Virus record (IMG/VR): IMGVR_UViG_3300045988_149975 | DNA length: 64,000 nucleotides | DNA from: a virus | Strand: one strand, 5' to 3' | In this document: positions 7,576 to 51,757 of the stretch, piece by piece | Position numbering within the stretch: the first letter of the stretch is position 1 | Layout: every line of letters starts with the position of its first letter | Position numbers and translations under genes: made by a program | Notes under the pieces: model-generated | Told to the model about the DNA's origin: nothing | Database searches by the model: none | Seen by the model: only the letters and a program-made list of their open reading frames with translations

Positions 7576-7581
7576 TTATGT

Positions 7582-8605: not shown

Positions 8606-8608
8606 ATA

Positions 8609-8693
8609 TGGTGCGCATGGAGGGACTCGAACCCTCACGGTTTTACCCAACGGATTTTAAGTCCGTTGTGTCTGCCAATTCCACCACAAGCGC
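8609..8693 (-). tRNA. tRNA-Leu(UAA), type II
   Basis: Acceptor GCGCTTG/CATGCGC with one mismatch. Anticodon stem ACGGA/TCCGT with loop CTTAAAA. Long variable arm. T-arm GAGGG-TTCGAGT-CCCTC. ACCA 3' end. Confidence 0.6.
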
Positions 8694-25614: not shown

Positions 25615-27720
25615 TCAAGCCTTAAAATTGTAAATTGGCTTAATAATCTGTTTAATTTTAACAGTATCTTTAACAGCGTCTATAATCTCTTGTGCAGGTT
25701 TATATGCCATAGGTGCTTCATCAATAGTGGAATTATTAACTGATGTAGTATAAATACCATCCATAGTAGCCATATAATCTTTTAAATCAATTTTCTCTTT
25801 AGCTTCGCTACGGCTCATAATTCTACCTGCGCCATGAGGGGCAGAGAAGTTCCAATCAGGATTACCCTTACCCTCACCAATTATGCAGCCATCCCTCATA
25901 TTAAGAGGTATTACAACACTTTCTCCTGCTCTTGCAGAAATTGCGCCTTTACGAATAGTTCCATTAGCATAATAATTATGAATAGATTCTACTGTTTCAA
26001 CAGCTAACACATTAAAATGGTTTAAAATACGCTCTGCAATAGAAAGGCGGTTAAGGGAAGCAAATTCACAGGCAAGGTACATATCTTGTTTATACTCCTC
26101 TAAATATTCACCTGTAAGATGTTCTAAACCTTTAGGCAGTTTATTATCCTCTTTAAACTGAAGTAACCATTCTTGCCGTTTTTGTGGCTCAATAGTTTGA
26201 ATATGAAACTTAATCTGTTCCTTTAAATCACCTTGTATTTTTTCGGCAAGGGATTGATAATATTTTGCTACTTGATTACCAAGATTTCGTGAACCACTAT
26301 GTACTAATAACCATTGATTGCCCTCATTATCAATGTCTACTTCAATAAAATGATTGCCGCCTCCAAGCGAACCAAGAGAAAGCCTTAATCTATCAGTATC
26401 ATGAAAATGATCACAACAACGAAAAAGTTTTAAAGGGAAGTATTCCTGAATTTTCTCATTTACATCAAAACCTGAAGGAATAAACTCATTTATAAACATA
26501 TCAAGTTTTTCCAAATTTTTAATAGGTTTATTAAGTTTAACTGCAAGAATACCACAATTACCTGTAATTGATATTTTACTATTCCTTCTAATAACAAAAT
26601 AACCTGTATCAGTAGTAAAACAATACTTTAAACCATCCACAGATTTAACTGTTTCAATCTTATGTTCAGGAAATCTTACAATATCGTTTAAGGTTTCATA
26701 AACATTATATGTAGGATTCCATCCGTTATCATAAGTAATTACACTTATTCCTGCCCTAACACCACTGGCAGCAAAAGCATACTGAATTGCGTCTGCATTA
26801 CATTTAAGGGAGGTTGAAAATCTTGTTTTATTATTGCGAACAGTTCCATCCCAATACTTAATTTCGTCTATAACTACTTTTAATTCATTACTATTACATT
26901 GATAAAGAAAACTTAAATCTTTAACATACTCATTTTCAGAACCTCTAAAACGAATATTTGAAGTGCCGTCTTTCCAAACACTAATCCTGTAGTCAATACC
27001 TGCCTGCTTTAATAATTTGATAGCACGTTTAATTTTACGTTCTTTTCTAAAGTGAAGTTCAATCCACTGACTGCCATCTACATTATTATTTATATGCCCA
27101 TCAGCACTAACCATAATCATTAAACGAAGTTTAATATCTTCAATGCCTAAACCTTTAGAGTTTACATTAAAAGTGGTTTTAATACCTCCACTGATGCCCT
27201 TTTTAAGTGAGTTATGATGTTCTACAAAATCTTTTGCGGTATAATCACGAAGTTTATATCCTTTACCTTTAATGCCAATCCAAGCCAATATTTTATGTTC
27301 AGCACTAACACATTGGTCTAATCCCCCATCAGTGTTAAGGTAATAAAAATCCTCACAGGGCTTTTTAATATATAATAATGGGTGAGAAAACCTTGCACTA
27401 TCTGTATTTTTATCATAAATTAAAATCTGTTCTCCATCATATTCTGAAATCTTTTTCCAGCCGTTAGGGGTAAGAATTTCAGTATCTTTATCAAGGCAAC
27501 CAATATCTACCCCTATAACATTAGGGATTAAATATCTTACATTTGATGCAGTAAATCCCACCACACAGCCTTTTCCTGCATGATAGTCAGGCATAACGCA
27601 AATTTGCGCCCCTGAAAAAGATTTTAAGTTACAAAAATCTAAAATCTGTTCATAAGCAGTATCATCATATCTGTCAGAATAGATTATAGCGTCATTATAT
27701 TTACCTTTTACCTCAATCAT
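25615..27720 (-). CDS. rtcB: RtcB-type RNA 3'-phosphate ligase, interrupted by an intein
   Basis: Exteins QICVMPDYHAGKGCVVGF and VDIG|CGILAV match the RtcB DIGCG motif; C-terminal GGGNHF and PHGAGR motifs. The extein totals about 387 aa. Confidence 0.8.
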   Translation of the reverse strand: MIEVKGKYNDAIIYSDRYDDTAYEQILDFCNLKSFSGAQICVMPDYHAGKGCVVGFTASNVRYLIPNVIGVDIGCLDKDTEILTPNGWKKISEYDGEQILIYDKNTDSARFSHPLLYIKKPCEDFYYLNTDGGLDQCVSAEHKILAWIGIKGKGYKLRDYTAKDFVEHHNSLKKGISGGIKTTFNVNSKGLGIEDIKLRLMIMVSADGHINNNVDGSQWIELHFRKERKIKRAIKLLKQAGIDYRISVWKDGTSNIRFRGSENEYVKDLSFLYQCNSNELKVVIDEIKYWDGTVRNNKTRFSTSLKCNADAIQYAFAASGVRAGISVITYDNGWNPTYNVYETLNDIVRFPEHKIETVKSVDGLKYCFTTDTGYFVIRRNSKISITGNCGILAVKLNKPIKNLEKLDMFINEFIPSGFDVNEKIQEYFPLKLFRCCDHFHDTDRLRLSLGSLGGGNHFIEVDIDNEGNQWLLVHSGSRNLGNQVAKYYQSLAEKIQGDLKEQIKFHIQTIEPQKRQEWLLQFKEDNKLPKGLEHLTGEYLEEYKQDMYLACEFASLNRLSIAERILNHFNVLAVETVESIHNYYANGTIRKGAISARAGESVVIPLNMRDGCIIGEGKGNPDWNFSAPHGAGRIMSRSEAKEKIDLKDYMATMDGIYTTSVNNSTIDEAPMAYKPAQEIIDAVKDTVKIKQIIKPIYNFKA
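26557..27498 (-). mobile_element. intein with LAGLIDADG homing-endonuclease domain inside rtcB (about 314 aa)
   Basis: Starts CLDKDTEILTPNGW after VDIG. LAGLIDADG-like LRLMIMVSADGHI and VVIDEIKYWDGT. Ends ...ISITGN followed by Cys +1. Confidence 0.7.
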
Positions 27721-34069: not shown

Positions 34070-34477
34070 TTAATTCTCCTTATATTTCCTCAAAGTAATA
34101 GAAGTTTTACCATCTGAAAATACATATTCATCATAATTATTAGCAGTGTTCACAGAAATTAAAGGCAAATCAAAATCAATATCTCCCTCAATACAAACAT
34201 TATATTCTGCACCTAATATAAAGGGGTAAAGTGAATCAGCAGGTTCAATCCAATCTTCCTCAATATGCTTACAGTCTTGCCCATTCTCAAATTTAACTCT
34301 GTAAACAAATCTATCATCTTCATAGGCTGTAAATACTACTTCACCTATATCTCCCTTGTTTATTAAAGAATCTTTTACAAAGGTTTTACAAATTCTTACT
34401 TTATCACCATTGTCGAATTTACTTTCTTTAACGATTCTCATTCTTAAACAACTCCTTAAAAATATAATACAGTACAT
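34070..34477 (-). CDS. hypothetical protein (KFDxGDKV motif family)
   Basis: SKFDNGDKVRI. Confidence 0.35.
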   Translation of the reverse strand: MYCIIFLRSCLRMRIVKESKFDNGDKVRICKTFVKDSLINKGDIGEVVFTAYEDDRFVYRVKFENGQDCKHIEEDWIEPADSLYPFILGAEYNVCIEGDIDFDLPLISVNTANNYDEYVFSDGKTSITLRKYKEN

Positions 34478-36443
34478 CTACTACAATACTATTACCTGCC
34501 ATTTTATAAAGCTGTGTATTACTTATTCCTTTACATACTTCAATATCCCTATCCTCAAAGCCCATAAGCCTGAAGCACTCTTTAGGAGTAAGTTTACGGA
34601 TTCTATTCTCAATTTTGTAGAGTCCTGTTTTAGCACCTAATCCACCTGCTTCACCTTTAAGAGTAACAGATAAACCGTTTACATCATACACCACCCTTTT
34701 AGCCTGTGGCATACCGCTTGTAAGTTCTGTAAGCTGTGGAACTACAACACCTGTTGCAATTCTATCATCATTTTGTAAGAAATTTGCTTGTGAAGTTTTA
34801 TAATAATTAGCTTTAATAGTTCTACAAGTACCATCCTTTTCAGTACCATAGGGCGTAACAGATTTAAAATGTTTGATGTAATCTTTAACTTTATCATCTC
34901 GCATAAAGTATCTATCCTCTACCTCATTTTCAAGCACATCCTTTAGACTTTTAGTAAGTGGAAACGGCGCAGGAAAGTTAAAACCTTTATCAATATCTTT
35001 CCTAATAGATATTATAAATACTCTTTCTCTCCTTTGAGGTATTCCATAATCTGCGGCATTTAATACCTTCCAATAATTATTATACCCCATCTCACTTAAA
35101 CAGTCAAGTATATAATTAAATTCTTTTGTAAATTTTTTACCAGTGAGATTTTTAACATTCTCACATACTGCATATTTAGGTTTGACAGCATCGATAATCC
35201 TTAAAGCGTCAAACACTAATCCGCTACGAGTTTTTTCACCATTATATTCCAACCCCATTTTCTTACCACTTACAGAAATATCTTGACAATTATGCACTAT
35301 AATGTTATTGACAGTATATGAATTATCATTTTCAACTTCAAGATTGAATACCTCGATAGGCTTTTCAATCATTTCAATAGCTTTAATAGGTACTGCTATT
35401 TTATCTCCTATAACTAATTGATGCAATGCTCTATCAGAAAACTGCGCATTATAACAATCTTTAAAACTATCTTTTTGTCTATCTTTTCTAATACTTGTTG
35501 TAGGTACTACATTATAAAGTTTAATAACAATTCTACACAACTGTAAAAACATCTGCTCATTTATAGTGCTAAACATAAAAGTTGCTCTATCTTTTCTTCT
35601 ATGCCCATCACCACTCATATAACCATCGAAGAATTTAGATAACTGTTCTTTATTTAAAGACACAACCCAATCAGGAATTTTCTTAATACCTGCTCCACTA
35701 CCACAACTATGTATTACAGATTCTAATTTATCATCTATAATTCTGAAGTCAATACACGTTCTTTTACTATGTCCTTCATTATATCTGATATTAGTTAAAT
35801 GTTTTATAAATTCCTCTTTCTTACCTGAACCAATACAAAATATGGGACGTTTCTGATAAAGTTTTTCACAATAACCGTCTGCAAAATATCTACCAAAAAG
35901 CCATAGCCTATCATCATCTAAATCTGTATAGGCAGACTCTGTATTTATATTATAGGTAATGAAATCTGTAAGTTTTAGATCTTTAGCCTTAACCCAAACA
36001 AACTCTCCATCTCTATAAACATATAAAGGATGCTCATTAGTTAAATAAAGATTATAAGCCCCTACCCCTTTAATATGTCTAATACTATTAGAAATTCTTG
36101 ACATCGTTCTTAAAACTTTTTGATAATTATTTGTATGTGTAAGTACATAATCACCTACAATTATATCTTCAATATTTTTATAACCACACTGCACTTTAAT
36201 TTTTGTTCCAGCAGGAACACATGGAAATCCATAAGTTACTAAATCTACTCCAGGAAGTTCGCCTTCATTTACTTTAGTAATATCCCAAAGGTTTAAACTT
36301 TCAGGCACGTTATGGATTAAGGAATATGCTTTACTTGCATACTTATCTACTTCACAATAGTTGACAAGGGTATAATTAATTCCCAATCTTTCAAGGGCTT
36401 TTTCAAAAGCCCCTATACCTCTAAACAAACTTAATAATTTCAT
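34428..36443 (-). CDS. DNA (cytosine-5)-methyltransferase split by an intein at the PCQ catalytic motif
   Basis: Motif I LFRGIGAF. Motif IV GFP-[intein]-CQ. C-terminal ENV and TRD. The extein totals about 360 aa. Confidence 0.75.
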   Translation of the reverse strand: MKLLSLFRGIGAFEKALERLGINYTLVNYCEVDKYASKAYSLIHNVPESLNLWDITKVNEGELPGVDLVTYGFPCVPAGTKIKVQCGYKNIEDIIVGDYVLTHTNNYQKVLRTMSRISNSIRHIKGVGAYNLYLTNEHPLYVYRDGEFVWVKAKDLKLTDFITYNINTESAYTDLDDDRLWLFGRYFADGYCEKLYQKRPIFCIGSGKKEEFIKHLTNIRYNEGHSKRTCIDFRIIDDKLESVIHSCGSGAGIKKIPDWVVSLNKEQLSKFFDGYMSGDGHRRKDRATFMFSTINEQMFLQLCRIVIKLYNVVPTTSIRKDRQKDSFKDCYNAQFSDRALHQLVIGDKIAVPIKAIEMIEKPIEVFNLEVENDNSYTVNNIIVHNCQDISVSGKKMGLEYNGEKTRSGLVFDALRIIDAVKPKYAVCENVKNLTGKKFTKEFNYILDCLSEMGYNNYWKVLNAADYGIPQRRERVFIISIRKDIDKGFNFPAPFPLTKSLKDVLENEVEDRYFMRDDKVKDYIKHFKSVTPYGTEKDGTCRTIKANYYKTSQANFLQNDDRIATGVVVPQLTELTSGMPQAKRVVYDVNGLSVTLKGEAGGLGAKTGLYKIENRIRKLTPKECFRLMGFEDRDIEVCKGISNTQLYKMAGNSIVVDVLYYIFKELFKNENR
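35289..36221 (-). mobile_element. LAGLIDADG-type intein (about 311 aa) inside the C5-methyltransferase
   Basis: Starts CVPAGTKIKV directly after GFP. LWLFGRYFADGY and LSKFFDGYMSGDGHR. Ends NNIIVHN followed by CQ. Confidence 0.7.
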
Positions 36444-38480: not shown

Positions 38481-38667
38481 ACAAGATTACCTCACCATTA
38501 ATAAAATCTAAATCATCAATGTATGTACAAAAATTTTCATATTTACTATCAATACTAATAAAACATTCTACATTCCCTTGCTTATCTCTTACTTCAATGA
38601 GTGCATCAATAAGTTCATTTAATTTCATTAGAAATCCTCTCCTTTGCAATGTTGAAATAATTTTCAT
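38458..38667 (-). CDS. hypothetical protein
   Basis: Probable start MKLNELID with RBS GGAGAGG; overlaps the methyltransferase stop. Confidence 0.3.
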   Translation of the reverse strand: MKIISTLQRRGFLMKLNELIDALIEVRDKQGNVECFISIDSKYENFCTYIDDLDFINGEVILYGETNEL

Positions 38668-39326
38668 CTTTTTCTATTCCAATAAACTTACGATTATTCT
38701 TTAAAGCTGCTACACCAGTGCTACCACTACCCATACAATTATCCAATACTACATCACCTTCACTTGTATAAGTCTTAATAAAGTATTCAAGCAATGCAAC
38801 AGGTTTTTGTGTAGGATGTAATCTACATTTATCTTTATTAAAATCTAATACATCTACTGGATAGCGTTTTCCATCATTTACCGTTACTACTGATACTTGC
38901 TCTCCATAATTACTACTACCTCTACCACTTTTGCAGGTATAAGGTTTCCCTTCTCTAAATTGTGGATGGTACGGGGGGGGAGGAATAGAATACTAAAATA
39001 TTTTCATGGTTCTTTAAAGGCATTTTCTTTGCGTTTAAATGTCCTGTTCCCTGTGGTTTACGCCATATCCACTCATACTTGAGATTTTTGATATTGCTTA
39101 CACCTAATACCTTATCAAAAGGAGTCTGTGCAAAGAGTAGGATAGCACCATTATCTTTTATAATACGATTATATTCTTTCCACATTAAGTCCAAATCTAT
39201 AACACTATCCCATTTATTCCTTGTAGTACCAAAAGGCGGATCACAAAGAATTAAATTAACACACTTATCAGGTATATCTTTCATTACCTCTAAACAATCA
39301 CCTAAATACAATTTTAGTTTATCCAT
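38615..39326 (-). pseudogene. beta-class N6A/N4C DNA methyltransferase, frameshifted at a C8 homopolymer (candidate phase-variable gene or homopolymer sequencing error)
   Basis: N-terminal frame ends at 38955 and carries ...LILCDPPFGT... Coding-strand C8 at plus 38973-38980. With C7 the frame continues ...RLHPTQKPVALLEYFIKTYTSEGDVVLDNCMGSGSTGVAALKNNRKFIGIE... to a stop at 38615. Confidence 0.7.
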
Positions 39327-39886
39327 CTAACTACAGTTTCTCCTTTAAATCCCTTTTCCCAAATAAACCAAGCATAAGCAATCGCATTGGATGGGTATTT
39401 ATCAAAATCACCATTCTTTGCGCAAGAAAGCCTACCCCTTGCAACATATACATACTTTGGTGGATTTTCTTTATAAAATTCTCCACGCTCTTTGCCTTCT
39501 AAAAATTGAAGGCGTAAAAAGAACGCTACAGAGTTACCTTTAGGAATAATATCTAATGCGTGTTTCACAAATGGAAGTGCTTGTTTGTAAGGAGGATTAG
39601 AAACAATATCTCCGCCCCATTCAGTCACATCAAAGAAATTTTGTACCTTACCATATCCTCTATCATAAAGGTCAATACTTTCTACAATATAGTTAGCTTT
39701 TTCTAACTCTTTACTGATATGCCCCTCACCACAACAACACTCTAAAATTTTCGGAGCAAATTTGTACTCTGCAAGTAGTAATTGTACTGCTTTAGGCTGT
39801 GTAGCATAGTAATCCTCTAATTGCCTTTCTTCCCTTGAATGATTACTTGCACCAAGAGTTACATATACATTATGCTTTCCGTTCAT
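39314..39886 (-). CDS. phage Dam-like N6-adenine DNA methyltransferase
   Basis: EDYYATQP (DxxYTP-type motif), FxGxG-like CCCGEGH, IVSNPPYK. Confidence 0.6.
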   Translation of the reverse strand: MNGKHNVYVTLGASNHSREERQLEDYYATQPKAVQLLLAEYKFAPKILECCCGEGHISKELEKANYIVESIDLYDRGYGKVQNFFDVTEWGGDIVSNPPYKQALPFVKHALDIIPKGNSVAFFLRLQFLEGKERGEFYKENPPKYVYVARGRLSCAKNGDFDKYPSNAIAYAWFIWEKGFKGETVVRWIN

Positions 39887-40214
39887 ACTTAACCTCCAAT
39901 TTTACTTTAGTGCTAAATTCAGAGTCTTTCAATGCTTCAATTCTTTCTTTCAAATACTTACAGCAATTTTCCTCTGTCATTGTTTTAATAAATTCGCAGT
40001 TCTGTAACAAAACTTTCATTAAATAATCTTCAGTAGGGCAAAAATCGTACATTTTATCACTATGCGCTTTAAGCACATACCTATCGAATGTTACTGTTAA
40101 ATCAGTAATATAGCTACTTCCATAATCACAAGTGGGGCAGCCTTTAAAGGCTTCTTTATCATAATCAATGTTTACAATACCACCGTCTACTAATTTCATT
40201 AAATAATCTTTCAT
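39870..40214 (-). CDS. hypothetical Cys-rich protein
   Basis: CPTCDYG...C...CC. Confidence 0.35.
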   Translation of the reverse strand: MKDYLMKLVDGGIVNIDYDKEAFKGCPTCDYGSSYITDLTVTFDRYVLKAHSDKMYDFCPTEDYLMKVLLQNCEFIKTMTEENCCKYLKERIEALKDSEFSTKVKLEVKYERKA

Positions 40215-40721
40215 TTTTTAATCTCCTCAAATATAATTTGTTTTGGTAAAATATTATGACATACATATACGCTTGAAAACGGTGGATTAAGAGATGGTTT
40301 TTGTTCTCTATAATCTTTGAAGTATGCAACTCTCTTATTAAAGTACATAATTTCAAAGTCATTATCTTTGAACATATTAAATCTCTTTTGGCTTTCAAAT
40401 AATCCTACAACACCTACAAGCATTGCAAAGGGTTTACCAATCTCAAACAGCCTTTGTAATACCTCGCCCTTTAAAGAATAGGGAGGATTACTTATAATAT
40501 AATCACAATCAGGAATAGGCTCTTTAAAGAAATCTTTACCCTCATTTATATGTGAGTGTATAACCTCATTTCCCCCCCCCTAAAATCTTTACAAAATTCG
40601 ACTCTTCAGTATCAAAGGGACACCAAATTGTAGAACCAGGTTTTAGATATTTAATTAAAGGTTCAATAGCATATACAGGAGTGTAAAATTCATCATTACC
40701 GCTGCTTGCCACTTTATCCAT
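40211..40721 (-). pseudogene. phage Dam-like N6-adenine methyltransferase, frameshifted at a G9 homopolymer
   Basis: N-terminal fragment MDKVASSGNDEFYTPVYAIEP...ILGGGK stops at 40566. Coding-strand G9 at plus 40572-40580 (C9 on plus). With G8 the frame continues ...DCDYIISNPPYSLKGE... to 40211. Confidence 0.7.
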
Positions 40722-41890: not shown

Positions 41891-42964
41891 CTATTCATTG
41901 TTTTTAAGTAAGAAATCAGGATTAATGACTTTAAAGGATATATCCTCTCTATAATTTCTTACAACAATACCTTCCCTATCTATATCATATAAAAGAGATT
42001 TACCTCTTGCTTTTTCTACAATATCATGAATAGTTGGGGGAAGTATAAAATCATTTGTAAGTACAGGAACATTGTTAAGCCCTAATTTTTTGCAGATAAA
42101 ACTTGCCTTATCTTGTTCAATGCGTAAATCATCTATAATTACATTGTAAACAAAGAAGTCATATCCTGAAACATGATATTTATTTCCTTGTATAGATTTA
42201 CCTATAATCTCACCTTGTATTACTACTTTATTAGCATTATATGTTTTAGCTATATCTTTTAAACAATCTTTTAAACCAAAACGCCTTGCCACTTCCCAAT
42301 ATGGGGAATCATCTTCTTTTCTTAACCATACATTTCTACTGCATACACCAAATTTTCCTTCATTTAAAAAATATGTAGCACTACATCCGTCTAATTTTTC
42401 AGTCATATAGAACTTAACATTGTCCTTATGCCATTTTTCATATTGATTAGGTAAATTTTGTACCCTTTCTTCATCTGTCTTATTACATATATTTACAGGA
42501 AATGAAGCATTTGTAGTTTTAAATTTCGCTAAAAGTTTTCTAAACCACCTGTATTTCATTAAAAACCGTAAAAATCTTGGGTAACTTACACTTTGTTTAA
42601 TAAGTTTTGTTTCAGCTTCAGCCTGCGGGTCATATTTAGTTATACCAAGTTCTTTTGTAACATCATCACCGATTTCATGATAACTGCCCCTTAAATAACT
42701 AATAGGTAATACCAAACCTTGTGAAATTTGCTTCCTTAATTTAATAGTTCTTACCCTGTACTTTCTATCCTTCATAAAAGCAAATTCAGGACGAGGAGGC
42801 AAAATGGAATCTACTTCTACAAAAATAACTTTATCCCCTACATTAAAATTATCAGATTTAGATACAACACATTCCCATCCCCTTACAGTAGCCTTGAGTA
42901 TTCTATCCGCATTGGGAATAGGTTCTAAACTTTCAATTCTTGCTATAGTTGCTAATTTACGCAT
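41891..42964 (-). CDS. ATP-dependent RNA ligase (Rnl family, DraRnl/Rnl5-like with N-terminal OB-like domain), putative
   Basis: Motif I TEKLDGCS, motif IV REGIVVRN, motif V KVINPDFLLK. N-terminal MRKLATIARIESLEPIPNADRI...GW..VVSK...GDKVIFVEVDSILP is typical of DRB0094-family RNA ligases. Confidence 0.5.
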   Translation of the reverse strand: MRKLATIARIESLEPIPNADRILKATVRGWECVVSKSDNFNVGDKVIFVEVDSILPPRPEFAFMKDRKYRVRTIKLRKQISQGLVLPISYLRGSYHEIGDDVTKELGITKYDPQAEAETKLIKQSVSYPRFLRFLMKYRWFRKLLAKFKTTNASFPVNICNKTDEERVQNLPNQYEKWHKDNVKFYMTEKLDGCSATYFLNEGKFGVCSRNVWLRKEDDSPYWEVARRFGLKDCLKDIAKTYNANKVVIQGEIIGKSIQGNKYHVSGYDFFVYNVIIDDLRIEQDKASFICKKLGLNNVPVLTNDFILPPTIHDIVEKARGKSLLYDIDREGIVVRNYREDISFKVINPDFLLKNNE

Positions 42965-42974: not shown

Positions 42975-44840
42975 TCACTTTACTACCTCTGCTTCAATAG
43001 GTTTTTCTTCTGTTAAAAGTGCTTCAAGTATTCCTCCGCTGCGTGGATTACTACCCTTTACAACGGTACTTTCTATAGTTCCACCTTTTACTACCGTTTT
43101 ACTTACTGTTACAGGATTACCATTTACCTCATTCTGTAATTTATGTAGTTTTTCTAAATAACCCCATGCATCTTTCATTAAATCAGAAGTTCTTTCTGTA
43201 GCTATACCACCTTGTTGAGTTTCTTGTAAATATGATTTCTGTACTCTTTCCAAAGCTAAATCGGCTAAAGAAGTCATACCATCTATTACATCATCTTGAT
43301 TACGAGTATTAAACTTACGGAAAAGATTATCGTAAGCACAGATATATCCTGCTTGATATTCAGGACAATTAGTTGCTAATACGCACCTGTCACATGATAA
43401 TCTTGCTATTGCTTTAGTAGAAATTTTCTTTTGTTTTCTTAATTTTTTAATACCTGCCTTAATATTACCGTCTTTATCATATATAGGTGTAATATCATTT
43501 CTAATAAGTTCTTTTTCTACCTCATCCTTATCATAACCTGCTGTAAGCAGCGCAGGAAGAAGTTTTCCACATTCCTCTCTTGATAACTCCACCTCTGTAT
43601 ACTCTTTATCTGTAATATACTGCTGACGCTCTAATGCTTTACGTTCATTATCTAAAGGCTCATGTAAATTCTGTAAAGCCCTCTCCTGTCCATTTAAAGC
43701 GTTTTTAAAAGCCTCTTTTAAGAAGGCTATACATTTATCCTTTGTATTATATTTAACACCCTCTGCGCCAAAATATGCGCAAATTTCAACTAAATCTTCA
43801 AGCTGATAAGCATTTAAGTCTTTATTATTAATAAAGTTATAAAAATCTAATAATAAAGTAGTGCCAAAATCTTTAGGTACTTGTGTATCTATACCTGCTT
43901 CATCTAACTTATCTTCCCAATCGTTCATATCAGTTGAAAACCACTCATAAGAAGGTAACTTATACATCTTTCTATCACTCCAATACTTTTTAGGGAACAT
44001 AACCTGTTTTACATACTCTTCCATTTTCTTAAAAGCAATAGCTGATGCTTTCATAAGTTCAGTTGACGCTTCTATATCCAATAATTTAGGATTAAGTTTA
44101 AGTGCTTCTAACTTTCCACGATATTCCCCATCTTTCCATTGCTCTTTTTTCAACCTTTTAAGTTTACCACCTTCAAAATAGTTTACTTCCCCGAACTGTG
44201 AACCCGTAAGCCAACTTGTCATATCAGCAGAGAAAAAAGGATGTTTGAGTAATAATTTATTACTTCCTACACCAAAACCATGTATTTTAGCTTTATTTTT
44301 GACTGCTATCTCAAAAAGTTTATCAATATACTCAATAGGATTATCTAAACTTGCGTTCATTTCAACAGCAGAAAAACCAACATAAGGATGTTTTCTACAA
44401 AGTTTATCAAAATCCTCAAAGCTATCATCTAAATGATATACATATATTACAGGTATACCCTCTTCTTCTAAAGGCATAAAATATTCTTTACGCCATCTTT
44501 CTACAACATCTTTGCCAACAAGACTTGATAAGTCAAGTTCTACACAAGCAAAGATTAAATCTCTATGCTTTTTAACAAAGCCTATGTATTTCTTTAGATA
44601 ATCTTCCCACCACTCTACGCTTTTATCACGATATTGAGCGTCATTTATGAAAGTATGTGCGCCACTGTCAATAAGAAATTTCATTCCTTTTTTCTTGTAT
44701 AACCGTTCTTCTATCTCCTCTTTACCTCTACGCCTTATATAGTAATAAGACAATAATAAATTTTTAGTGACTGCACTTGCTATATCATAAATTTGTTTAG
44801 GCTCAACACCTGATAAAAATAATGTAAATTCGCTTTTCAT
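42975..44840 (-). CDS. large protein, possibly DpdA/TGT-like DNA-guanine transglycosylase
   Basis: FLIDSGAHTF resembles the TGT DSGGFQ motif. C-terminal Cys cluster CDRCVLATNCPEYQAGYIC. Lies adjacent to QueC-like and near QueE. Weak. Confidence 0.3.
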   Translation of the reverse strand: MKSEFTLFLSGVEPKQIYDIASAVTKNLLLSYYYIRRRGKEEIEERLYKKKGMKFLIDSGAHTFINDAQYRDKSVEWWEDYLKKYIGFVKKHRDLIFACVELDLSSLVGKDVVERWRKEYFMPLEEEGIPVIYVYHLDDSFEDFDKLCRKHPYVGFSAVEMNASLDNPIEYIDKLFEIAVKNKAKIHGFGVGSNKLLLKHPFFSADMTSWLTGSQFGEVNYFEGGKLKRLKKEQWKDGEYRGKLEALKLNPKLLDIEASTELMKASAIAFKKMEEYVKQVMFPKKYWSDRKMYKLPSYEWFSTDMNDWEDKLDEAGIDTQVPKDFGTTLLLDFYNFINNKDLNAYQLEDLVEICAYFGAEGVKYNTKDKCIAFLKEAFKNALNGQERALQNLHEPLDNERKALERQQYITDKEYTEVELSREECGKLLPALLTAGYDKDEVEKELIRNDITPIYDKDGNIKAGIKKLRKQKKISTKAIARLSCDRCVLATNCPEYQAGYICAYDNLFRKFNTRNQDDVIDGMTSLADLALERVQKSYLQETQQGGIATERTSDLMKDAWGYLEKLHKLQNEVNGNPVTVSKTVVKGGTIESTVVKGSNPRSGGILEALLTEEKPIEAEVVK

Positions 44841-45025
44841 CTATCAAAGGAACGGTATAAAGGATTACGGCGAAGCCTATCTACTCTCGAACTTAACCTA
44901 TTCCATGTTCGCTGATTCCATGTCGGTCGATTTCGGCGTAAACGCCCTGTATCATTACGTTTAATGTCAATAGACACATCATTATTACTATTGCCTAATG
45001 TATTATAATCTTTTCTACTACCCAT
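44837..45025 (-). CDS. small Arg-rich protein
   Basis: 62-aa ORF. Confidence 0.3.
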   Translation of the reverse strand: MGSRKDYNTLGNSNNDVSIDIKRNDTGRLRRNRPTWNQRTWNRLSSRVDRLRRNPLYRSFDR

Positions 45026-45603
45026 TATAATTCCCCCATTTCATTTTTAGTTAAATAGAATTTATATTTCTGTGCTTCTCGCCATTTACAGTCAGTACAT
45101 TGTCCACAAGGCTCTCCTACATTATTTGCAAAATTACAGGAAAAAGTATCTTCTAAATTAACATTTAAAGAGCAGCCTATACGATACACTTCATCTTTAT
45201 CCTTGTCTATAAATGGTGCAATTACTTTATATTTGTCCTCAAATTCCACTCTTAAATAAGCATTTATAGCATCCACCCACTTTTGAGTAGTATCTATAAA
45301 TTCTGTATTAGCAATTAATCCTATATAAATATTAGCGTCCTTTGGATATACCCTATTAATTAATTCTAATACAAATCTTGCATTACGGCAAGGATTAAAA
45401 CCATCTTTTTCAATTTTGGAGCGCATTTTATCAAAATAATCAAACTCTTTATTCTCCAAAATTTCACCTACATTAATAAGTTTACTATCTGTATCTTCCA
45501 TAATAAAGAAAAATGTTTTAGGATTTAAACCTTTATGTTCCATCCATGCCTTCAACACTGTACTGTCATAACCATGACTCCATAATAAAAAATTATCTCT
45601 CAA
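45025..45603 (-). CDS. queC: QueC-like 7-cyano-7-deazaguanine synthase (PP-loop ATPase)
   Basis: Degenerate PP-loop LLWSHGYDST. C-terminal zinc motif CGQCTDCKWRE, of CGxCxxCxxR type. Confidence 0.45.
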   Translation of the reverse strand: MRDNFLLWSHGYDSTVLKAWMEHKGLNPKTFFFIMEDTDSKLINVGEILENKEFDYFDKMRSKIEKDGFNPCRNARFVLELINRVYPKDANIYIGLIANTEFIDTTQKWVDAINAYLRVEFEDKYKVIAPFIDKDKDEVYRIGCSLNVNLEDTFSCNFANNVGEPCGQCTDCKWREAQKYKFYLTKNEMGEL

Positions 45604-45808
45604 TCCAAACTACGCCCCTTTTCTTTCTATATTTTGTAACAAGAGTATATAAACTCTTTGTACCAAATATAAATACCTTATTAAAGTTGAAAGCATTAAG
45701 AATATCTATATCGCCACCATAAAAAATTTCAAAAGGTACATTAAACTTTTTACAGAAATTATAAACTGCCACAATATTTATGTCCCCTATACTGCAAAAG
45801 ATATTCAT
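45593..45808 (-). CDS. hypothetical protein
   Basis: 71-aa ORF. Confidence 0.3.
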   Translation of the reverse strand: MNIFCSIGDINIVAVYNFCKKFNVPFEIFYGGDIDILNAFNFNKVFIFGTKSLYTLVTKYRKKRGVVWIER

Positions 45809-45868
45809 TTTTTTTTGCCATTTAAGTGAAATTCAAGCACATCTGATATATCCTCTTCTGTCAAAATC

Positions 45869-46261
45869 TTATTTGACAGGACAAGTGCTTGCTGCATTTA
45901 ATTTTACCTCCAAGTCTGTTAAGTTATCAACAGAACTATCATCTAAATAAACGTGGGCAAATACTTTTCTTGCTCTTAAATTTTCTATCCACCATTTCAT
46001 ACCGTCAGGGAACATTTCTTTTATACGCTCCAAATCATCATTAACAGCGTCAAACTCTAATCCCAACTTTTTACAATAAGAAACTGCCTCATCTAAACTC
46101 TTACCACACCTGCAAGTCCAAAGGATTAATTCGTTCCCTGCTTCTTTTAATTCTATGAGTTTTTCTATTACACATCTACCGCTTTTATCTTCTTTAAGAT
46201 AGCCAATATTCGGAAAAGCATTTTCTACGATAGTTCCATCAAAATCTACTGCTATAATCAT
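45869..46261 (-). CDS. HAD-superfamily phosphatase (5'-nucleotidase-like)
   Basis: HAD motif I MIIAVDFDGTIV; the start is placed at this Met rather than the ORF-track start. Confidence 0.55.
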   Translation of the reverse strand: MIIAVDFDGTIVENAFPNIGYLKEDKSGRCVIEKLIELKEAGNELILWTCRCGKSLDEAVSYCKKLGLEFDAVNDDLERIKEMFPDGMKWWIENLRARKVFAHVYLDDSSVDNLTDLEVKLNAASTCPVK

Positions 46262-46304
46262 TTTATACTCCTTATAAAATAGTGCGCCAAAAGGCGCACC
46301 ATAA

Positions 46305-49184
46305 TTAACATTTACTATAGCCACAATTATTACAATAAGCACACTTACCATCAGGAATAAGAGTATACTCACCACATTCAGGGCATTTCATTTTGCCATT
46401 ATGAATATCATCCTTTACCTCATGAATAGCTTTCTGCGTTTCCTCTGTAAGTGCTTTTTCAAAAGTATTTTTAGCATCCTCTATAGCTGTCTTATTTTCT
46501 TGCAAGTCTTTATAAATATCTCTAATTGCACTTGCAATACAAGAAGCGCAAGATTTAGAAATATCTTTTCTACCGCTACGCATTAAATAACTACAAGCAG
46601 GACAGTTAGCGTTGCTTAACTCATCAGCAATATCTAATGCTTTACCACCAAGCCTTAAAGCATAGCTTGTAAGTCTTGCAATAGTAGAAATATTAGCTTG
46701 ACAGCCTGTTTCTGCACCTACAAAAACCTCAAAAATGTGATTATCTTTTACATTTACTGTTACATAAAAATTTCTTACACAAGCTGTATGGTAAACAAAA
46801 GTGCGCCCCCAAAGGGATTTCACTCCATTACGTTTAACAGGCTCAAGATTATCTAACTGTCTTGCTTGCATATCATCTACTGTAACAGGTTCTTTAATAA
46901 TCTCAACTTTTGGCACATGATTTTTAACTTCTTTATTCTCTACATCAGCACGTTTTACACCATGGTCAGTACCAAGGATATTAATGCGTTTGCAGTTATC
47001 ACGAAAAATAGTAATACCCTTACAACCATTTGACCATGCCTGCAAATAAAGGTTAAAAATATCATCTACAGTTGCACTCTCTTTAAGATTAATAGTAGAA
47101 GAAATTGCATTATCTACATAAGACTGCATAGTAGATTGTAAATCAACCCTATCCTTGGGGTCAATATCATAAGTATCTACAATATAAGGAAACTTTTCTT
47201 TAATCTGTTCAGCAGTAAGTTCATTGGGATTATAACCTCTAAATTTTAAAAGATTTTCCACTGCAAGCATATTAATATGGAAAGATTTACCTTCTTTTTC
47301 AAGAACATGAGTAGTTCTATCATAAGACACTTGATAGTATGGTTCTACACCACCACTTTCTCTAAAGAGCATTGAAATTGAACCGGTAGGTGCAATACTC
47401 AATAAAGTGCCATTACGCATATTTTGAGATAAATCCTTTGCCACTCTTGAAGTAAATCTGTACTGAATATCATGTACCATACCACTTTTATCAAATTTTT
47501 CTTTGTCAAATTTACCAAAACTACCCTTTTCTGCCCCTAATTTTGCAGAAGTGGCATAGGCAGTAGTCTGCATATTGCGCATAATAGATGCTATAAGTTC
47601 AATACTTTTTTGACTGCCATATTTAATACCCATTGCTACAAACATATCTGCCATACCAAATATGCCTAAACCAATGCTACGCCAATCATCAATACATTTC
47701 CTATTCTTATCTAAAGGTTGAAGTTCATAACCATAATCAAGAATTTCATCTAATGCGGTTACAGCATTTTTAACTGTATCACAGAATCGCTCCATATTGA
47801 AATGCGCCGTATCAGTATAAGGATTATCTACGAAGTTATAAAGATTAATACTACCTAAATTACAAGCATTATACTCTGAACCTGCAAATTCACCACAATT
47901 CCCTGTCAAAACACCATTGGCAATGAAGGTATGATTTTTAGGCTCATTCATACAATAAACAGTATCAACTACTTCTGCTTCTTCGATAGCTACAACGCTA
48001 ATTTTAGGGCAGGCATAAGCTGTTACAATAAAATCAAGGTCATTATTAAAAACAGGATGTTTATACCAATCTAAAGTGTCACCAACTTTTAAATCTTTAG
48101 CTTCAACTCTGCCGACATCCCTCAATACCCATTTATGGTAAGGGGTACACTGAACAGTAGCACCATTAGAGAATTTAATCTTTAAAGTCTTTTGGTCATG
48201 CCCTGTTACTTTAGGAGTAACTTTGCTCCACTCATAACCATTCCAAACTTCTACCTCTTTACCTGCTAATTCCCCAATAGGTTTATACCCCTTTTTAGTA
48301 AGAATAAGGGTATCACCAGTTACACAAGGGTTTGTAGTATCAATCCTATATTCATTAATAGGATAGCCACTCAATAAGTTACATTCTCTTACATTATCAA
48401 TAAATAATGCCCCAGGCTCTCCCCAATCATACTGCGCTTCACAAAATTTCCTAAAGAAATCTCTTGCATTAATTTCTTTTTTAACCTCTTCACCATTTTC
48501 TTCATTTTTAAAGTGCAACTCAAAATTCTCATTACTAATTACACTTGTCATAAAATCATCAGTGAAACATATAGAAATGTTCGCACCCTGAATTTTATCA
48601 TTATTCTGTTTAATAGTTAAAAATTCTTCAATATCAGGATGGTCACAATTCAAGGAAATCAGAATTGCTGCCCTTCTTCCGTTATTTCCAATAACTTCAC
48701 CAATTACATTATAGACATCCATGAAGGAAACTGCACCGCTTGAAGTCTTTGCAGAATTATTAACTTTAGCACCCTTTGGGCGAAGGTTACTCAAATTAAT
48801 ACCTGCTCCACCGCCAAAGCTAAAAATTCTTGCCATTTCCTTACCTACATCAAAAATAGATTCAATGTTATCTTTAGGTGAGGGAAGAATATAACAATTA
48901 CTTGTTGTGGCTCTAAATTTTCCTTTACAACCTGCTGCATAAAGTGTTCTGCCCGCAGGTAAGAAAGTACCATCTATAATACTCTCTACCATAAAATCTT
49001 GTAATTCTTTTGTAGAAAAAATACTTGATACTCTTTTAATGAAAGCATTAAATCCTGCATCAAAACCTTCCTGTTCTACAATTTTTAACTCGTCATCGTG
49101 CATATATTTTTTCTTTATAATATTTTGCGGAATTTCATCATCCCACCATACTTTATACATATTTACATTACTAATTCTACCCAA
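46305..49184 (-). CDS. nrdJ: class II (adenosylcobalamin-dependent) ribonucleotide reductase with mini-intein
   Basis: Active-site motif TNP-[intein]-CGEF. C-terminal Cys cluster CPECGE...CAYCNNCGY. About 816-aa extein. Confidence 0.75.
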   Translation of the reverse strand: MGRISNVNMYKVWWDDEIPQNIIKKKYMHDDELKIVEQEGFDAGFNAFIKRVSSIFSTKELQDFMVESIIDGTFLPAGRTLYAAGCKGKFRATTSNCYILPSPKDNIESIFDVGKEMARIFSFGGGAGINLSNLRPKGAKVNNSAKTSSGAVSFMDVYNVIGEVIGNNGRRAAILISLNCDHPDIEEFLTIKQNNDKIQGANISICFTDDFMTSVISNENFELHFKNEENGEEVKKEINARDFFRKFCEAQYDWGEPGALFIDNVRECNLLSGYPINEYRIDTTNPCVTGDTLILTKKGYKPIGELAGKEVEVWNGYEWSKVTPKVTGHDQKTLKIKFSNGATVQCTPYHKWVLRDVGRVEAKDLKVGDTLDWYKHPVFNNDLDFIVTAYACPKISVVAIEEAEVVDTVYCMNEPKNHTFIANGVLTGNCGEFAGSEYNACNLGSINLYNFVDNPYTDTAHFNMERFCDTVKNAVTALDEILDYGYELQPLDKNRKCIDDWRSIGLGIFGMADMFVAMGIKYGSQKSIELIASIMRNMQTTAYATSAKLGAEKGSFGKFDKEKFDKSGMVHDIQYRFTSRVAKDLSQNMRNGTLLSIAPTGSISMLFRESGGVEPYYQVSYDRTTHVLEKEGKSFHINMLAVENLLKFRGYNPNELTAEQIKEKFPYIVDTYDIDPKDRVDLQSTMQSYVDNAISSTINLKESATVDDIFNLYLQAWSNGCKGITIFRDNCKRINILGTDHGVKRADVENKEVKNHVPKVEIIKEPVTVDDMQARQLDNLEPVKRNGVKSLWGRTFVYHTACVRNFYVTVNVKDNHIFEVFVGAETGCQANISTIARLTSYALRLGGKALDIADELSNANCPACSYLMRSGRKDISKSCASCIASAIRDIYKDLQENKTAIEDAKNTFEKALTEETQKAIHEVKDDIHNGKMKCPECGEYTLIPDGKCAYCNNCGYSKC
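47898..48326 (-). mobile_element. mini-intein (about 143 aa, no endonuclease domain) in nrdJ
   Basis: Starts CVTGDTLILTKKG after TNP. Ends FIANGVLTGN followed by CGE. Confidence 0.65.
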
Positions 49185-49197
49185 TTCATTCCCTCCA

Positions 49198-49794
49198 TTA
49201 TAATAAAAATTCTTCTGCCATTGGCAACTTCTCTACAAAATCCATGAATACTTTATTCCACGCTTTAAGTCTATGGTTTTTACGCTGCGATACCATAGTT
49301 TTAATTTGCTGATAATTTGTAGAAATACGAGCAGTAAGCTGATAACCCATTGGTACATTAGCAAGTACAGTATCAAAATCACATTCACCTTTATTGTATC
49401 TATCTACATATTCTTCAGCAATAGCGATAACTCTTTCATCTGTACCTTCTACACACATCTTTGCAATATCTGCTTTAAGTAACTTGTGCATTTTACTTGT
49501 GCTACTTACAATCTGCTGAAAATGATACCTTTGCCATTCTGCCCAAAAATATTGTGGCATTTCTAAATCAAACTGAACTATAATACCAGTTAAAAAATTA
49601 TTATGACCGCTTCCGATAGGTGCTTTGGCTAATGCTTCTGCTCTAATAATATGTTTATTTTCATCATCCAATAATGCAATTTTCATTGTCTGTTTATCAA
49701 ATTCTTTAGCATTAGGAGTTTTCAATAACATAGGATAACCCGAAGCCAAAATACTTTCCTCTAAACCATACACATTTACATTACTTATCTCCAT
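49198..49794 (-). CDS. ThyX-like (flavin-dependent thymidylate synthase fold) protein with altered RHR motif
   Basis: GSGHNNFLTGIIVQFDLEMPQYFWAEWQRYHFQQIVSSTSKM parallels the ThyX region HETPFEH..FTF...[17 protein letters not shown]...SGRY, but RHR is replaced by RYH. Confidence 0.45.
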   Translation of the reverse strand: MEISNVNVYGLEESILASGYPMLLKTPNAKEFDKQTMKIALLDDENKHIIRAEALAKAPIGSGHNNFLTGIIVQFDLEMPQYFWAEWQRYHFQQIVSSTSKMHKLLKADIAKMCVEGTDERVIAIAEEYVDRYNKGECDFDTVLANVPMGYQLTARISTNYQQIKTMVSQRKNHRLKAWNKVFMDFVEKLPMAEEFLL

Positions 49795-50008
49795 TTTTTA
49801 CCTCCAAATACTGTCCTGTCTTAATAATATAACCTTTTAACCCACATTTTGAACATACTATATCTTTCAACCATAATTTTGTAGGTGCTACAATAATGCC
49901 ACGATATAAACATTTTAAACAGATGCCCTCAAATACTTGATGAGGAATCTTCTGTTCCCTTAATTCATCCATATCAATTACCATCTTGTTCTTCCTCAAA
50001 TAATTCAT
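49781..50008 (-). CDS. Zn-ribbon protein
   Basis: CLKCLYRG...CSKCGLKG. Confidence 0.35.
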   Translation of the reverse strand: MNYLRKNKMVIDMDELREQKIPHQVFEGICLKCLYRGIIVAPTKLWLKDIVCSKCGLKGYIIKTGQYLEVKNGDK

Positions 50009-50369
50009 TTAAAACCCTGGGAGCATAAGCACGTCCTTCAGTTTTAGCTAATGCTTTTTTAGTTTCATTGACAATCTTACCCATCCTATTAATAGAATTA
50101 TTATCATATCCATTTGCAAGCGGCGTAAGAATATCAATTAAATCTTTAGCTACCCTACGTTCTTTAGAGTATTCATTAATTAACCTACATATTTTAGTCC
50201 GCATTTTTCTATCAGTAGGATAATTAAATTCACAAAAGTGGCGAATATCACCAAAGGCTTTATCTGCTTCATTAACAGTAGTACTACAAATTGAAATATC
50301 GGATTTTGCATCCTTTAAAACTTCATAAAAATCAGAAATAATTTGACAAATCTCTTCTTTTGTTTTCAT
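49974..50369 (-). CDS. hypothetical protein
   Basis: 131-aa ORF. Confidence 0.4.
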   Translation of the reverse strand: MKTKEEICQIISDFYEVLKDAKSDISICSTTVNEADKAFGDIRHFCEFNYPTDRKMRTKICRLINEYSKERRVAKDLIDILTPLANGYDNNSINRMGKIVNETKKALAKTEGRAYAPRVLNELFEEEQDGN

Positions 50370-50416
50370 ATAATCACCTCAATAATGATTATACCACAAA
50401 ATATCTAAAATGTCAA

Positions 50417-51058
50417 TTACTTTACATTTAAAATTTTATGTAATTGTATACCTATCCTGCCCTTTATACTTCCGTCCAGTAAAGTTTTATTTATAAGTTT
50501 TACAGATTCCTCATTGTTATTAACTGGTGAAAGAATTATTTCTGCTTTTGTAGGATATTTCTTCAAAATCTTTTTAGCAAATTCAATATCCCTCTCATTA
50601 TCAATCACAAACTTAACTTCATCATAGGATTTTAATACAGCTAAATTATTATACTTATTAAGCCCTTCTACACCACTACATGGACATTTTATATCCATTA
50701 CATAATTATAGCTTCTTTTATAGTCATCACTATCTATATCTATAAGTCCGCTTGTTTCAATACTTACAATATATGAAAAAGATAAAAGTTCATAAATAAG
50801 CGGGTAAATATCATTCTGTAATAAAGGCTCTCCACCTGTTAAACAAACATATTTATTACCTAATTTACTTACCTCTAACATAATTTTATCCAAACTCATT
50901 AAACTATAATTCTTACCCTCACAAGCATATATTGAATCACAATATCTACAAAATGGCTTTGCAACACATCCATAAAACCTAATAAAAGTAGTAGGATAGC
51001 CCGTATACTTCCCCTCACCTTGTATTGATGAAAAAATTTCAACTACTTTCATTTTCAT
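50417..51058 (-). CDS. queE: 7-carboxy-7-deazaguanine synthase QueE (radical SAM)
   Basis: VEIFSSIQGEG...FIRFYGC...C.YCDS, LTGGEPLL, ETSG. Confidence 0.8.
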   Translation of the reverse strand: MKMKVVEIFSSIQGEGKYTGYPTTFIRFYGCVAKPFCRYCDSIYACEGKNYSLMSLDKIMLEVSKLGNKYVCLTGGEPLLQNDIYPLIYELLSFSYIVSIETSGLIDIDSDDYKRSYNYVMDIKCPCSGVEGLNKYNNLAVLKSYDEVKFVIDNERDIEFAKKILKKYPTKAEIILSPVNNNEESVKLINKTLLDGSIKGRIGIQLHKILNVK

Positions 51059-51422
51059 ACCCCCAATCTAATTTGACAACATCACCATTCTTTCTTCTTC
51101 CAAAATTTCTTGAAAAACTATCGACTAATAAAAAACGTAACTCTTCTTCAGATTTAACTTTAACTTTAAAATATTCCTTTAAATCTAACTTACTATAGTC
51201 ATATTTATTTAATGGTGTAACACGTTCTGCAATATTGCATAAACCAAACGGTAAGGAAACATACAACTTGGTAAGATACTTACTTCTATTCCTGTTTTGC
51301 CATTCATATTTATTCTGTTTTATGCCTTCACCAACTGTACGATAGTATGGAAATTTTAAAACAAAGTTACCTATAATCAATATAAACCTACTACCACCTC
51401 TTGTAGTATAAAACCATTTCAT
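51039..51422 (-). CDS. hypothetical protein
   Basis: 127-aa ORF. Confidence 0.35.
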   Translation of the reverse strand: MKWFYTTRGGSRFILIIGNFVLKFPYYRTVGEGIKQNKYEWQNRNRSKYLTKLYVSLPFGLCNIAERVTPLNKYDYSKLDLKEYFKVKVKSEEELRFLLVDSFSRNFGRRKNGDVVKLDWGYENESS

Positions 51423-51475
51423 TACCCCAACTCCAAATTGGAAGCCTTAAAAAAGAAGCCCCCATAAGAGGGCTT

Positions 51476-51757
51476 TTAATTTAAACTTGTAAATAATTTA
51501 ATCAAAGTGCGTTCTTCACCTTCAACTACAGTAACATCAAATCCTGGGCGCACAACTATATCCCTACCATTTGAAGCAAGAAAACCTCTTGCAACAGCAA
51601 CTGCTTTTACAGCTTGTGATAAACTTGCAGCACCTATACAATGTAATACTACATTTGAAGCTACTGTATTGCCCTCACCTTTAAGAGTTTTAGCAATACA
51701 GCCTGCAAGAGATTTAACATTACTGCTACCACTTACTTTTAATACTACCTCTTTCAT
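51476..51757 (-). CDS. spoVS: SpoVS-like (stage V sporulation protein S family) protein
   Basis: LKVSGSS...LAG.IA..L...IGAASLSQAVKAVAVARGF.A..G.D....F.....EGEERTLIKL aligns with SpoVS. Confidence 0.7.
   Translation of the reverse strand: MKEVVLKVSGSSNVKSLAGCIAKTLKGEGNTVASNVVLHCIGAASLSQAVKAVAVARGFLASNGRDIVVRPGFDVTVVEGEERTLIKLFTSLN

Follow-up and report, generated by a model that had tools for sequence, protein, structure and literature searches.

The 64-kb window of viral DNA studied here (IMG/VR record IMGVR_UViG_3300045988_149975; "the window" means this whole stretch) probably carries a pared-down phage module that puts 7-deazaguanines into DNA after replication, composed of a DNA-guanine transglycosylase (DpdA), a short QueC-family protein and QueE. 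An earlier note, made from the sequence alone, had proposed QueE, a QueC-like protein and a possible DpdA as such a set, and this core claim is supported by homology, fold and purifying selection. All the open reading frames (ORFs) that it had named exist at their coordinates, on the minus strand. The parts of the set are the following:

42975..44840, minus strand: predicted DpdA1-type DNA-guanine transglycosylase, long form, 621 aa; residues 1-285 form a barrel of the tRNA-guanine transglycosylase (TGT) type (TIM barrel), residues ~292-468 helical and alpha/beta linker domains, and residues 464-621 a Cys4 cluster (C483, C486, C492, C501) followed by a helical module
42975-43451, minus strand: DpdA C-terminal module (residues 464-621)
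44837..45025, minus strand: small basic ORF rich in Arg and Asn, 62 aa, overlapping QueC at its start and DpdA at its stop
45025..45603, minus strand: short QueC-family ATP-pyrophosphatase/Zn protein, 192 aa, TTG start
50417..51058, minus strand: QueE, radical-SAM 7-carboxy-7-deazaguanine (CDG) synthase, 213 aa, motifs QGEG, Cx5Cx2C and TGGEP
51423..51475, minus strand: queD-less gap, 53 nt, intergenic, holding the SpoVS terminator hairpin followed by a ribosome-binding site for the gene that comes next

As judged by its sequence and its structure model, the 621-aa protein is a DpdA1-type DNA-guanine transglycosylase. The PHROG family 'queuine tRNA-ribosyltransferase' (phrog_887) matched it at 1.4e-65, and gp021 of Bacillus phage BCD7, which appears as DpdA in Hutinet et al. 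2019, at 1.3e-100 (33% identity over 97% of the length). By tblastn in a 2.3-Gb database, it reached the experimentally validated DpdA of phage 9g at 6e-9, together with DpdAs of Mycobacterium, Pseudomonas and Salmonella phages; every match was of the DpdA1 type, and none of the DpdA2 or DpdA3 type. No Pfam TGT match was obtained, and sequence searches of the PDB, with the single sequence or with an 18-member profile, returned nothing, so that TGT was reached by fold comparison only. In the AF2 model the barrel has a pLDDT of ~85-95. The best 35 Foldseek matches of the model in the PDB are TGTs (E ~2e-5), and the best viral ones are BFVD models of phage 'queuine tRNA-ribosyltransferase' (DpdA), with target-normalised TM values of 0.64-0.79. 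The earlier note had taken a DSG motif as the sign of a possible DpdA and had suggested a comparison of 42975..44840 with TGT and DpdA. Fold comparison of the model does give the TGT fold and, with the DpdA catalytic residues and the homology to validated phage DpdAs, the proposal stands.

D58-S59-G60, H187-G188 and D206 are invariant among the 18 DpdA family members aligned. The DSG, the HGF and the Asp of SxDxxSW all align with 9g DpdA: its LDSGAF falls on D58-S59-G60, its VHGFG on the IHGFG of the window (H187-G188), and its SCDSSSW on D206. These equivalences are drawn from alignments, rather than from a residue-by-residue superposition of structures. In bacterial DpdA, the Asp of DSG is the general acid/base, a second Asp is the nucleophile and a His recognises the base; the two Asp are Asp95 and Asp256, respectively, in the S. 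Montevideo enzyme (PMC10164549). In the window protein, D58 would be the general acid/base and D206 the nucleophile. A conserved His (His196 of 9g, His181 of bacterial DpdA) separates DpdA1 from DpdA2 (PMC6884629), and the invariant H187 takes this place in the window protein. Past residue ~290, the extension consists of helical domains, the Cys4 cluster, nearly invariant in the 18-member alignment, and then a helical hairpin. BCD7 DpdA and gp36 (DpdA) of Streptomyces phage BRock carry the same long C-terminal extension.

QueE, called definite in the earlier note, was confirmed at 50417..51058. It matched the NCBIfam models TIGR04349 (2.6e-52, residues 3-210 on positions 1-203 of a 210-position model) and TIGR03963 (2.9e-45, full length), the PHROG family 'QueE-like' (phrog_2076, 2e-36) and BCD7 QueE (1e-65). 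Among its radical-SAM motifs, the Cys triad reads CVAKPFCRYC, and this Cx5Cx2C is a spacing variant.

The 192-aa protein is a QueC relative of a particular kind. Pfam PF06508 matched it at 5e-15, with a score of 56 for a gathering score of 22 and with only the C-terminal two thirds aligned, and the profile of the short-QueC family to which it belongs matched B. subtilis QueC (3BL5) at 1e-15 and Cap9 at 2e-11. The canonical QueC signature was set by mutagenesis as SGGxDS, YxQxHxxE, VPxRN, YPDC, a Lys and C(x)8CxxCxxC (Libby et al. 2026, PMC13329287), and, in the same paper, Q formation by the E. coli enzyme requires the Tyr of YxQxHxxE (Y35). The window protein keeps PCRN (NPCRN), FxD, the lysine of PFx4K (PFIDKDK) and a Cx9CxxCxxC Zn motif; its YPDC reads FIDT, and the essential Tyr after the first Zn-motif Cys is an Asn. 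Opposite the Y-N-Q-R-H of B. subtilis QueC, the family profile has l-e-d-y-d and the window FFIMEDTD. The QueC-like PP-loop/Zn protein of the earlier note therefore keeps its family identity, on the Pfam and profile matches, but the motifs and the NCBIfam cut-off (see below) speak against a canonical preQ0 synthase. From these sequence features, it is presumably a CDG-activating member of PF06508, synthesising preQ0 or the amide ADG.

The two early genes of the pathway are missing. The earlier note had found neither folE nor queD in the window, and this was extended here: nothing was detected in the window or in the 10 kb on either side, in six contigs, by single-sequence searches or by hidden Markov model searches (best E 0.64 with the latter). 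FolE from 3 phages and QueD from 6 phages served as models, with positive controls at 9e-94 and 8e-52, and the search left ~5-17 kb of the structural-gene block uncovered. Nor was any GTP-cyclohydrolase or PTPS domain present among the genes listed for both flanks. In sister phages, a QueD of 114-129 aa (PF01242) lies between SpoVS and the gene preceding queE, and DNA alignment with one of them (L018) revealed a clean, gene-sized gap at the queD site of the window. Of the related loci, L014, L015, L018 and L019 have queD; it is missing from L002-L007 and L020, and the window and its strains have just the 53 nt at this site. Canonical QueD (CxxxHGH) occurs in relatives whose DpdA is 48-79% identical, and close relatives have the arrangement QueD-QueE...QueC-small ORF-DpdA; in BCD7 and in a relative with 35% identity, folE lies directly upstream of dpdA. 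From this phylogenetic distribution, parsimony suggests that folE was lost first, and queD recently, in this lineage.

Despite this loss, the remaining genes are under strong purifying selection. The window was compared with L020, a second queD-less strain, at a dS of ~0.8. dN/dS was 0.04 for DpdA, 0.09 for QueC and 0.12 for QueE, and 0.06 and 0.07 for the housekeeping neighbours RNA ligase and Cas4. These low values show that the set is in use, presumably on CPH4 made by the host. More than 20 independent metagenome contigs (52-101 kb) carry DpdA, QueC and QueE in intact form. As for the 62-aa ORF, the slot between QueC and DpdA holds a gene of 61-77 aa in all close relatives (L014, L015, L018, L019 and L020). 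Its sequence is weakly conserved (23-80%), with a dN/dS of 0.17 in the comparison with L020, and it may be an accessory to DpdA or to DNA.

The mechanism that we propose is based on work on bacterial DpdA (PMC10164549) and on phage DpdA1 (PMC6884629, PMC10516641); enzyme activities, inserted base, host dependence and anti-restriction role are all inferred. CPH4 would come from FolE and QueD of the host, since the phage has neither gene, and QueE would convert it into CDG. The short QueC-family enzyme would then activate CDG with ATP and amidate it, going on to preQ0 or stopping at ADG. After replication, DpdA would cut guanine out of double-stranded phage DNA via a covalent Asp-deoxyribose intermediate, and put in the deazaguanine base. 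DNA so modified would withstand host restriction enzymes, and the ArdA and DNA methyltransferase genes of the window fit such a role. An archaeosine-type modification, which the earlier note had also considered, was not supported: no Pfam, PHROG or NCBIfam match to Gat-QueC, ArcS, QueF-L, QueF, DpdL, DpdM or DpdN was found in the scanned window ORFs or in the called genes of related loci. The scan concerned window ORFs of at least 100 aa, a few of these and most shorter ORFs being left unscanned. As there is no amidotransferase, archaeosine is not expected, and preQ1 derivatives are likewise not expected.

A number of observations weigh against this interpretation. TIGR00364 gives the QueC-like protein 47.8 bits for an NCBIfam cut-off of 150.3. 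YxQxHxxE is absent from this protein and from the entire short-QueC family, and the P-loop reads SHGYDS, with Gly changed to His, in the window, P0025 and P0026/L020, while more distant relatives have SGGYDS. The SHGYDS-encoding stretch is conserved between the window and L020, though the start chosen by some gene callers lies further downstream. Because of the missing motif, the altered P-loop and the score below cut-off, preQ0 synthesis is not assured, and the inserted base could be preQ0, ADG or CDG. QueE is also below the NCBIfam equivalog cut-offs (177.6 bits for 300 with TIGR04349). The Cys cluster of DpdA, the sole one, comes ~280 residues after the barrel and has a pLDDT below 50; a structural Zn site beside the barrel, in the style of TGT and bacterial DpdA, is not demonstrable from a model of such low confidence. 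Finally, the supply of CPH4 to QueE by the host, without a phage queD, is an assumption, and the modification itself is read from genes, fold, conservation and selection rather than from DNA chemistry.

The points on QueC leave room for the same module with another chemistry, which we consider unlikely: the short QueC would be an ADG synthase (like the proposed QueC*) or a CDG-amine ligase (as are Cap9 and QatC), and DpdA would insert ADG, CDG or a new CDG-derived base. Besides the motif losses, the aromatic-Asp pair of relatives reads TD in this lineage, the protein resembles minimal Cap9 in length and in the motifs RN, aromatic-x-D and PFx4K, and its single-sequence PDB search gave Cap9 as best match (8.6e-6, as compared with 0.077 for QueC). 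QueC also evolved faster than its neighbours, with 58% amino-acid identity between this lineage and L018 for 79% in DpdA. Viral DNA is known with dADG and dCDG, and one DpdA2 can insert CDG (PMC10516641). However, the family profile slightly favours canonical QueC structures over Cap9 (1e-15 compared with 2e-11), no CD-NTase or Qat partner is found nearby (window and 20 related loci), and BCD7 and the sister phages keep an ordinary QueD-QueE-QueC-DpdA arrangement, predicted to lead to dPreQ0 or dADG. Far less probable is an auxiliary role in tRNA, in which QueE and QueC would raise host preQ0 for queuosine in host tRNAs and in the phage tRNA-Asp(GUC), with the TGT-like protein either acting on tRNA or being inactive. 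The window does encode eight tRNAs, among them the Q-substrate tRNA-Asp(GTC), plus an RtcB and RNA ligase repair set, and phages with Que genes but devoid of DpdA have been proposed to raise Q levels (PMC6884629). But the 621-aa protein groups with the DNA-acting phage DpdA1, matching 9g and BCD7 DpdA, and not with bacterial TGT, to which it has neither a Pfam match nor a sequence-level match in the PDB; moreover QueF, QueA, QueG and QueH were not found, and bacterial TGT requires preQ1. The least credible view is that of a relic, a pathway dead since queD loss with its genes decaying. That queD is deleted in this lineage only, and that the QueC P-loop has a His for a Gly, would agree with it. 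Yet the DpdA, QueC and QueE ORFs are intact in each contig examined, dN/dS is 0.04-0.12 within the queD-less lineage, and SHGYDS itself is conserved between strains. This purifying selection on the three genes leads us to reject it, and a reduced module for DNA modification is the reading that we retain.

Several known systems can be set beside this module. Closest is BCD7 (Becedseptimavirus, gp021-gp028), listed among the phages with DpdA and a preQ0 pathway in Supplementary Data 1 of Hutinet et al. 2019. It shares the long DpdA architecture (757 aa in BCD7), including the C-terminal CxxCx5CPEY module, a homologous QueE and QueC, the synteny of the replication module (RusA, SpoVS-like, QueD-QueE-QueC-FolE-DpdA) and the myovirus layout, with no similarity at the nucleotide level. 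Unlike the window, BCD7 encodes FolE, QueD, QueE and QueC, the latter of 215 aa; the window has no folE or queD, and its QueC, of 192 aa, carries SHGYDS. With the DpdA1 of Enterobacteria phage 9g (dG+) and of Escherichia phage CAjan (dPreQ0), the window protein shares a homologous transglycosylase core and the expected post-replicative guanine exchange. In contrast, 9g DpdA has 317 aa and no C-terminal extension, and 9g possesses an archaeosine-making Gat-QueC with FolE, QueD and QueE, as opposed to the partial pathway without amidotransferase of the window. By its late-only pathway, minimal QueC, long DpdA and recent queD loss, the window departs from the DpdA1 paradigm of 9g, CAjan and BCD7.

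Incomplete pathways have been described by Hutinet et al. 2019 in Salmonella phage 7-11, which has DpdA only, and in Mycobacterium phage Bipper, which lacks only QueC. As in these phages, a phage DpdA would rely on precursors made by the host; unlike them, the window keeps the late QueE and QueC and drops the early two, and sister phages document the queD loss as recent. As regards QueC, the window protein belongs to the same family as Cap9 and as QueC*, proposed to be an ADG synthase in viruses like Campylobacter phage CP220; both of these enzymes yield an amide and not a nitrile. Cap9, the minimal CDG-protein ligase of type IV CBASS (191 aa), shares with it the minimal size and the motifs RN, YxD and PFx4K, but has a Y/FxQx5E motif and an adjoining CD-NTase, both lacking here: neither a CD-NTase (CBASS IV) nor QatA/B/D neighbours occur in the window or the 20 related loci.

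The C-terminal module of DpdA provided a lead, rather than a finding, towards the terminase. The last 160 residues of DpdA are homologous (E 8e-11) to the C-terminal part of Orf1 of Tsukamurella phage TIN2, a 447-aa protein labelled small terminase, whose gene immediately precedes that of the large terminase. The module is shared by proteins of Gordonia phages that bear the annotation 'terminase small subunit' and lie next to TerL on its upstream side. Pfam detected no small-terminase domain in TIN2 Orf1, BRock gp36, BCD7 DpdA or the C-terminal part of the window DpdA, and the 'small terminase' label is therefore positional only. No small terminase is recognisable upstream of TerL in the window phage or in BCD7, and a literature search for DpdA together with small terminase returned nothing relevant. 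One could speculate, with little confidence, that the module tethers DpdA to the packaging machinery or is its DNA-recognition subunit, coupling deazaguanine insertion to packaging, and that the product of the minimal QueC, which lacks YxQxH, is a base different from preQ0.

The genes around the set are those of a tailed phage, from the half of the genome devoted to replication and nucleotide metabolism. The window has a G+C content of 31%, with most genes, including all those discussed here, on the minus strand. Its replication genes are those of a DnaB helicase, a primase, a family-A DNA polymerase, a RecA/UvsX recombinase and Holliday-junction resolvases. Also present are a Cas4-like nuclease, RusA, SpoVS, a ribonucleotide reductase (RNR), an RNA ligase, RtcB, DNA methyltransferases, a dNMP kinase, a DNA ligase and eight tRNAs. 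No nucleotide-level relative was found among the 50,697 phage genomes searched. Nevertheless, an identical 621-aa DpdA is encoded by numerous metagenome contigs as long as 101 kb (the six listed span 64-101 kb), and 38 index blocks of the collection contain its exact sequence. Beyond one end of the window, 10 kb of flank carry large terminase, portal, capsid and tail genes; beyond the other, 10 kb carry a helicase, an endolysin and a diversity-generating retroelement. The latter (reverse transcriptase and Mtd-like target protein; L011-L013 1-2833, just past the high-coordinate end) adjoins the lysis genes. The gene order runs parallel to that of BCD7, a 94-kb myovirus. A scan of a genome-contig collection for a host or prophage gave only distant matches, with 32% identity at most, and no host assignment. 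SpoVS, the low G+C and homologues in Clostridium and Fusobacterium phages suggest an anaerobic Firmicute as host, by inference. The other features considered below are:

51476-51757, minus strand: SpoVS homologue (Pfam 8e-24), kept in all relatives and in BCD7
51475-51456, minus strand: strong terminator hairpin after SpoVS
51039-51422, minus strand: p127, 127 aa, overlapping the queE start (phrog_4301), with kinase-like motifs VLKFP ... DxxxxNFG ... KLDWG
50416-50388 and 41844-41816, minus strand: two promoters that match the extended sigma-70 consensus perfectly (TTGACA-17-TATAAT, with TG), the first immediately past queE and the second immediately past the RNA ligase gene
49198-49794, minus strand: p198, 198 aa, ThyX-fold protein (phrog_6721), without Pfam match
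46305-49184, minus strand: RNR, class II NrdJ type, with intein
45869-46375 (more likely 45869-46261), minus strand: HAD phosphatase, BT0820 family
41891-42964: Rnl-type RNA ligase
39314-39886: Dam-like DNA methyltransferase, 190 aa
38955-39326 and ~38618-38992, minus strand: N6/N4 DNA methyltransferase, split
34428-36443, minus strand: C5 DNA methyltransferase, with intein
25615-27720, minus strand: RtcB, with intein
16493-17116, minus strand: ArdA anti-restriction protein (Pfam 1.2e-12)
5786-8693, minus strand: eight tRNA genes (Pro, Thr, Trp, Glu, Asp-GTC, Ser, Ile-TAT and Leu)
1737-2843: DNA ligase

The conservation of SpoVS hints at a spore-forming Firmicute host. Given these two promoters and the SpoVS terminator, queE and the queC-dpdA block may be separate transcription units. 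The tRNA cluster, together with RtcB and the two ligases, looks like equipment for supplying and repairing tRNAs, probably to counter anticodon nucleases of the host. The window and its sister strains have an unusual density of inteins and homing endonucleases: apart from those in RNR, the C5 DNA methyltransferase and RtcB, strain-variable inteins or LAGLIDADG/HNH insertions were seen in sister strains (L002-L013) in TerL, RecA, DnaB, DNA polymerase, RNA ligase, helicase and the capsid region.

The earlier note had placed an RNR and a HAD phosphatase beside the set. Both are present, but a role in the set was not upheld; the RNR lies outside the deazaguanine cluster in three relatives. RNR, HAD phosphatase and the small kinase-like gene are neighbours unrelated to the deazaguanine set, the first two belonging to ordinary nucleotide metabolism. 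Neighbouring ORFs were also considered as substitutes for FolE or QueD. The small kinase-like p127 has homologues in T4-like Escherichia phages and in Aeromonas, Ralstonia and Erwinia jumbo phages, the one of Kosakonia phage Kc263 being annotated as a Ser/Thr kinase; it was rejected, as it coexists with a true QueD in relatives and belongs to a kinase-like family of unrelated phages. The p198 model (pLDDT 93.5) has ThyX structures as its best 50 Foldseek matches in the PDB, with a query-normalised TM of 0.70; p198 was rejected in turn as a hidden replacement, its fold being that of ThyX and not a T-fold. The ThyX signature RHRxxSxxxxSxRY reads RYHFQQIVSSTSKMH in p198, and with this alteration its chemistry may differ. 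An hhalign comparison of its family with one spliced ThyX sequence was not significant (E 0.2), though the signature motif was aligned. The family has more than 570 members, with representatives in Clostridium, C. difficile, Fusobacterium and Desulfovibrio phages, and in L014 a genuine Thy1 with an intein occupies the p198 slot. Four more ORFs tested as replacements (p131, p75, p71 and p62) had no Pfam match even at E up to 10; p131 (131 aa) has no homologue in sequenced phages and no known relatives outside this phage group. A 299-aa radical-SAM gene, found beside a 126-aa gene in some sister strains, is not in the window.

ArdA would be a second, protein-based anti-restriction device. The four methyltransferases counted in the earlier note were reduced to three DNA methyltransferase genes near the cluster, one of them split: most sister strains encode the N6/N4 methyltransferase in one gene (237 aa), which falls into two frames in the window, L006 and L020 (frameshift or pseudogenisation). 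A 169-aa 'EcoRI-methylase-like' gene of some strains is truncated in the window (40211-40423). ArdA and the three DNA methyltransferase genes fit an anti-restriction lifestyle. In a sister phage, a Mom-like gene (L019 7550-8164, PF25680, adenine N6-carbamoylmethylation family) is inserted between queE and queC, which suggests that the locus gathers DNA-modification genes.

7-Deazaguanine DNA modification by DpdA is an established phage counter-defence, to which the window phage adds a member and not a principle; its short QueC represents a widespread, uncharacterised subtype. The phage is common in metagenomes, so the chemistry of its DNA bears on sequencing and restriction-based work with such samples. 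More generally, BCD7 with folE, queD, queE and queC, the sister gut phages with queD, queE and queC, and the window phage with queE and queC form a reduction series, which shows the steps that a phage can pass to its host while the late enzymes stay under selection.

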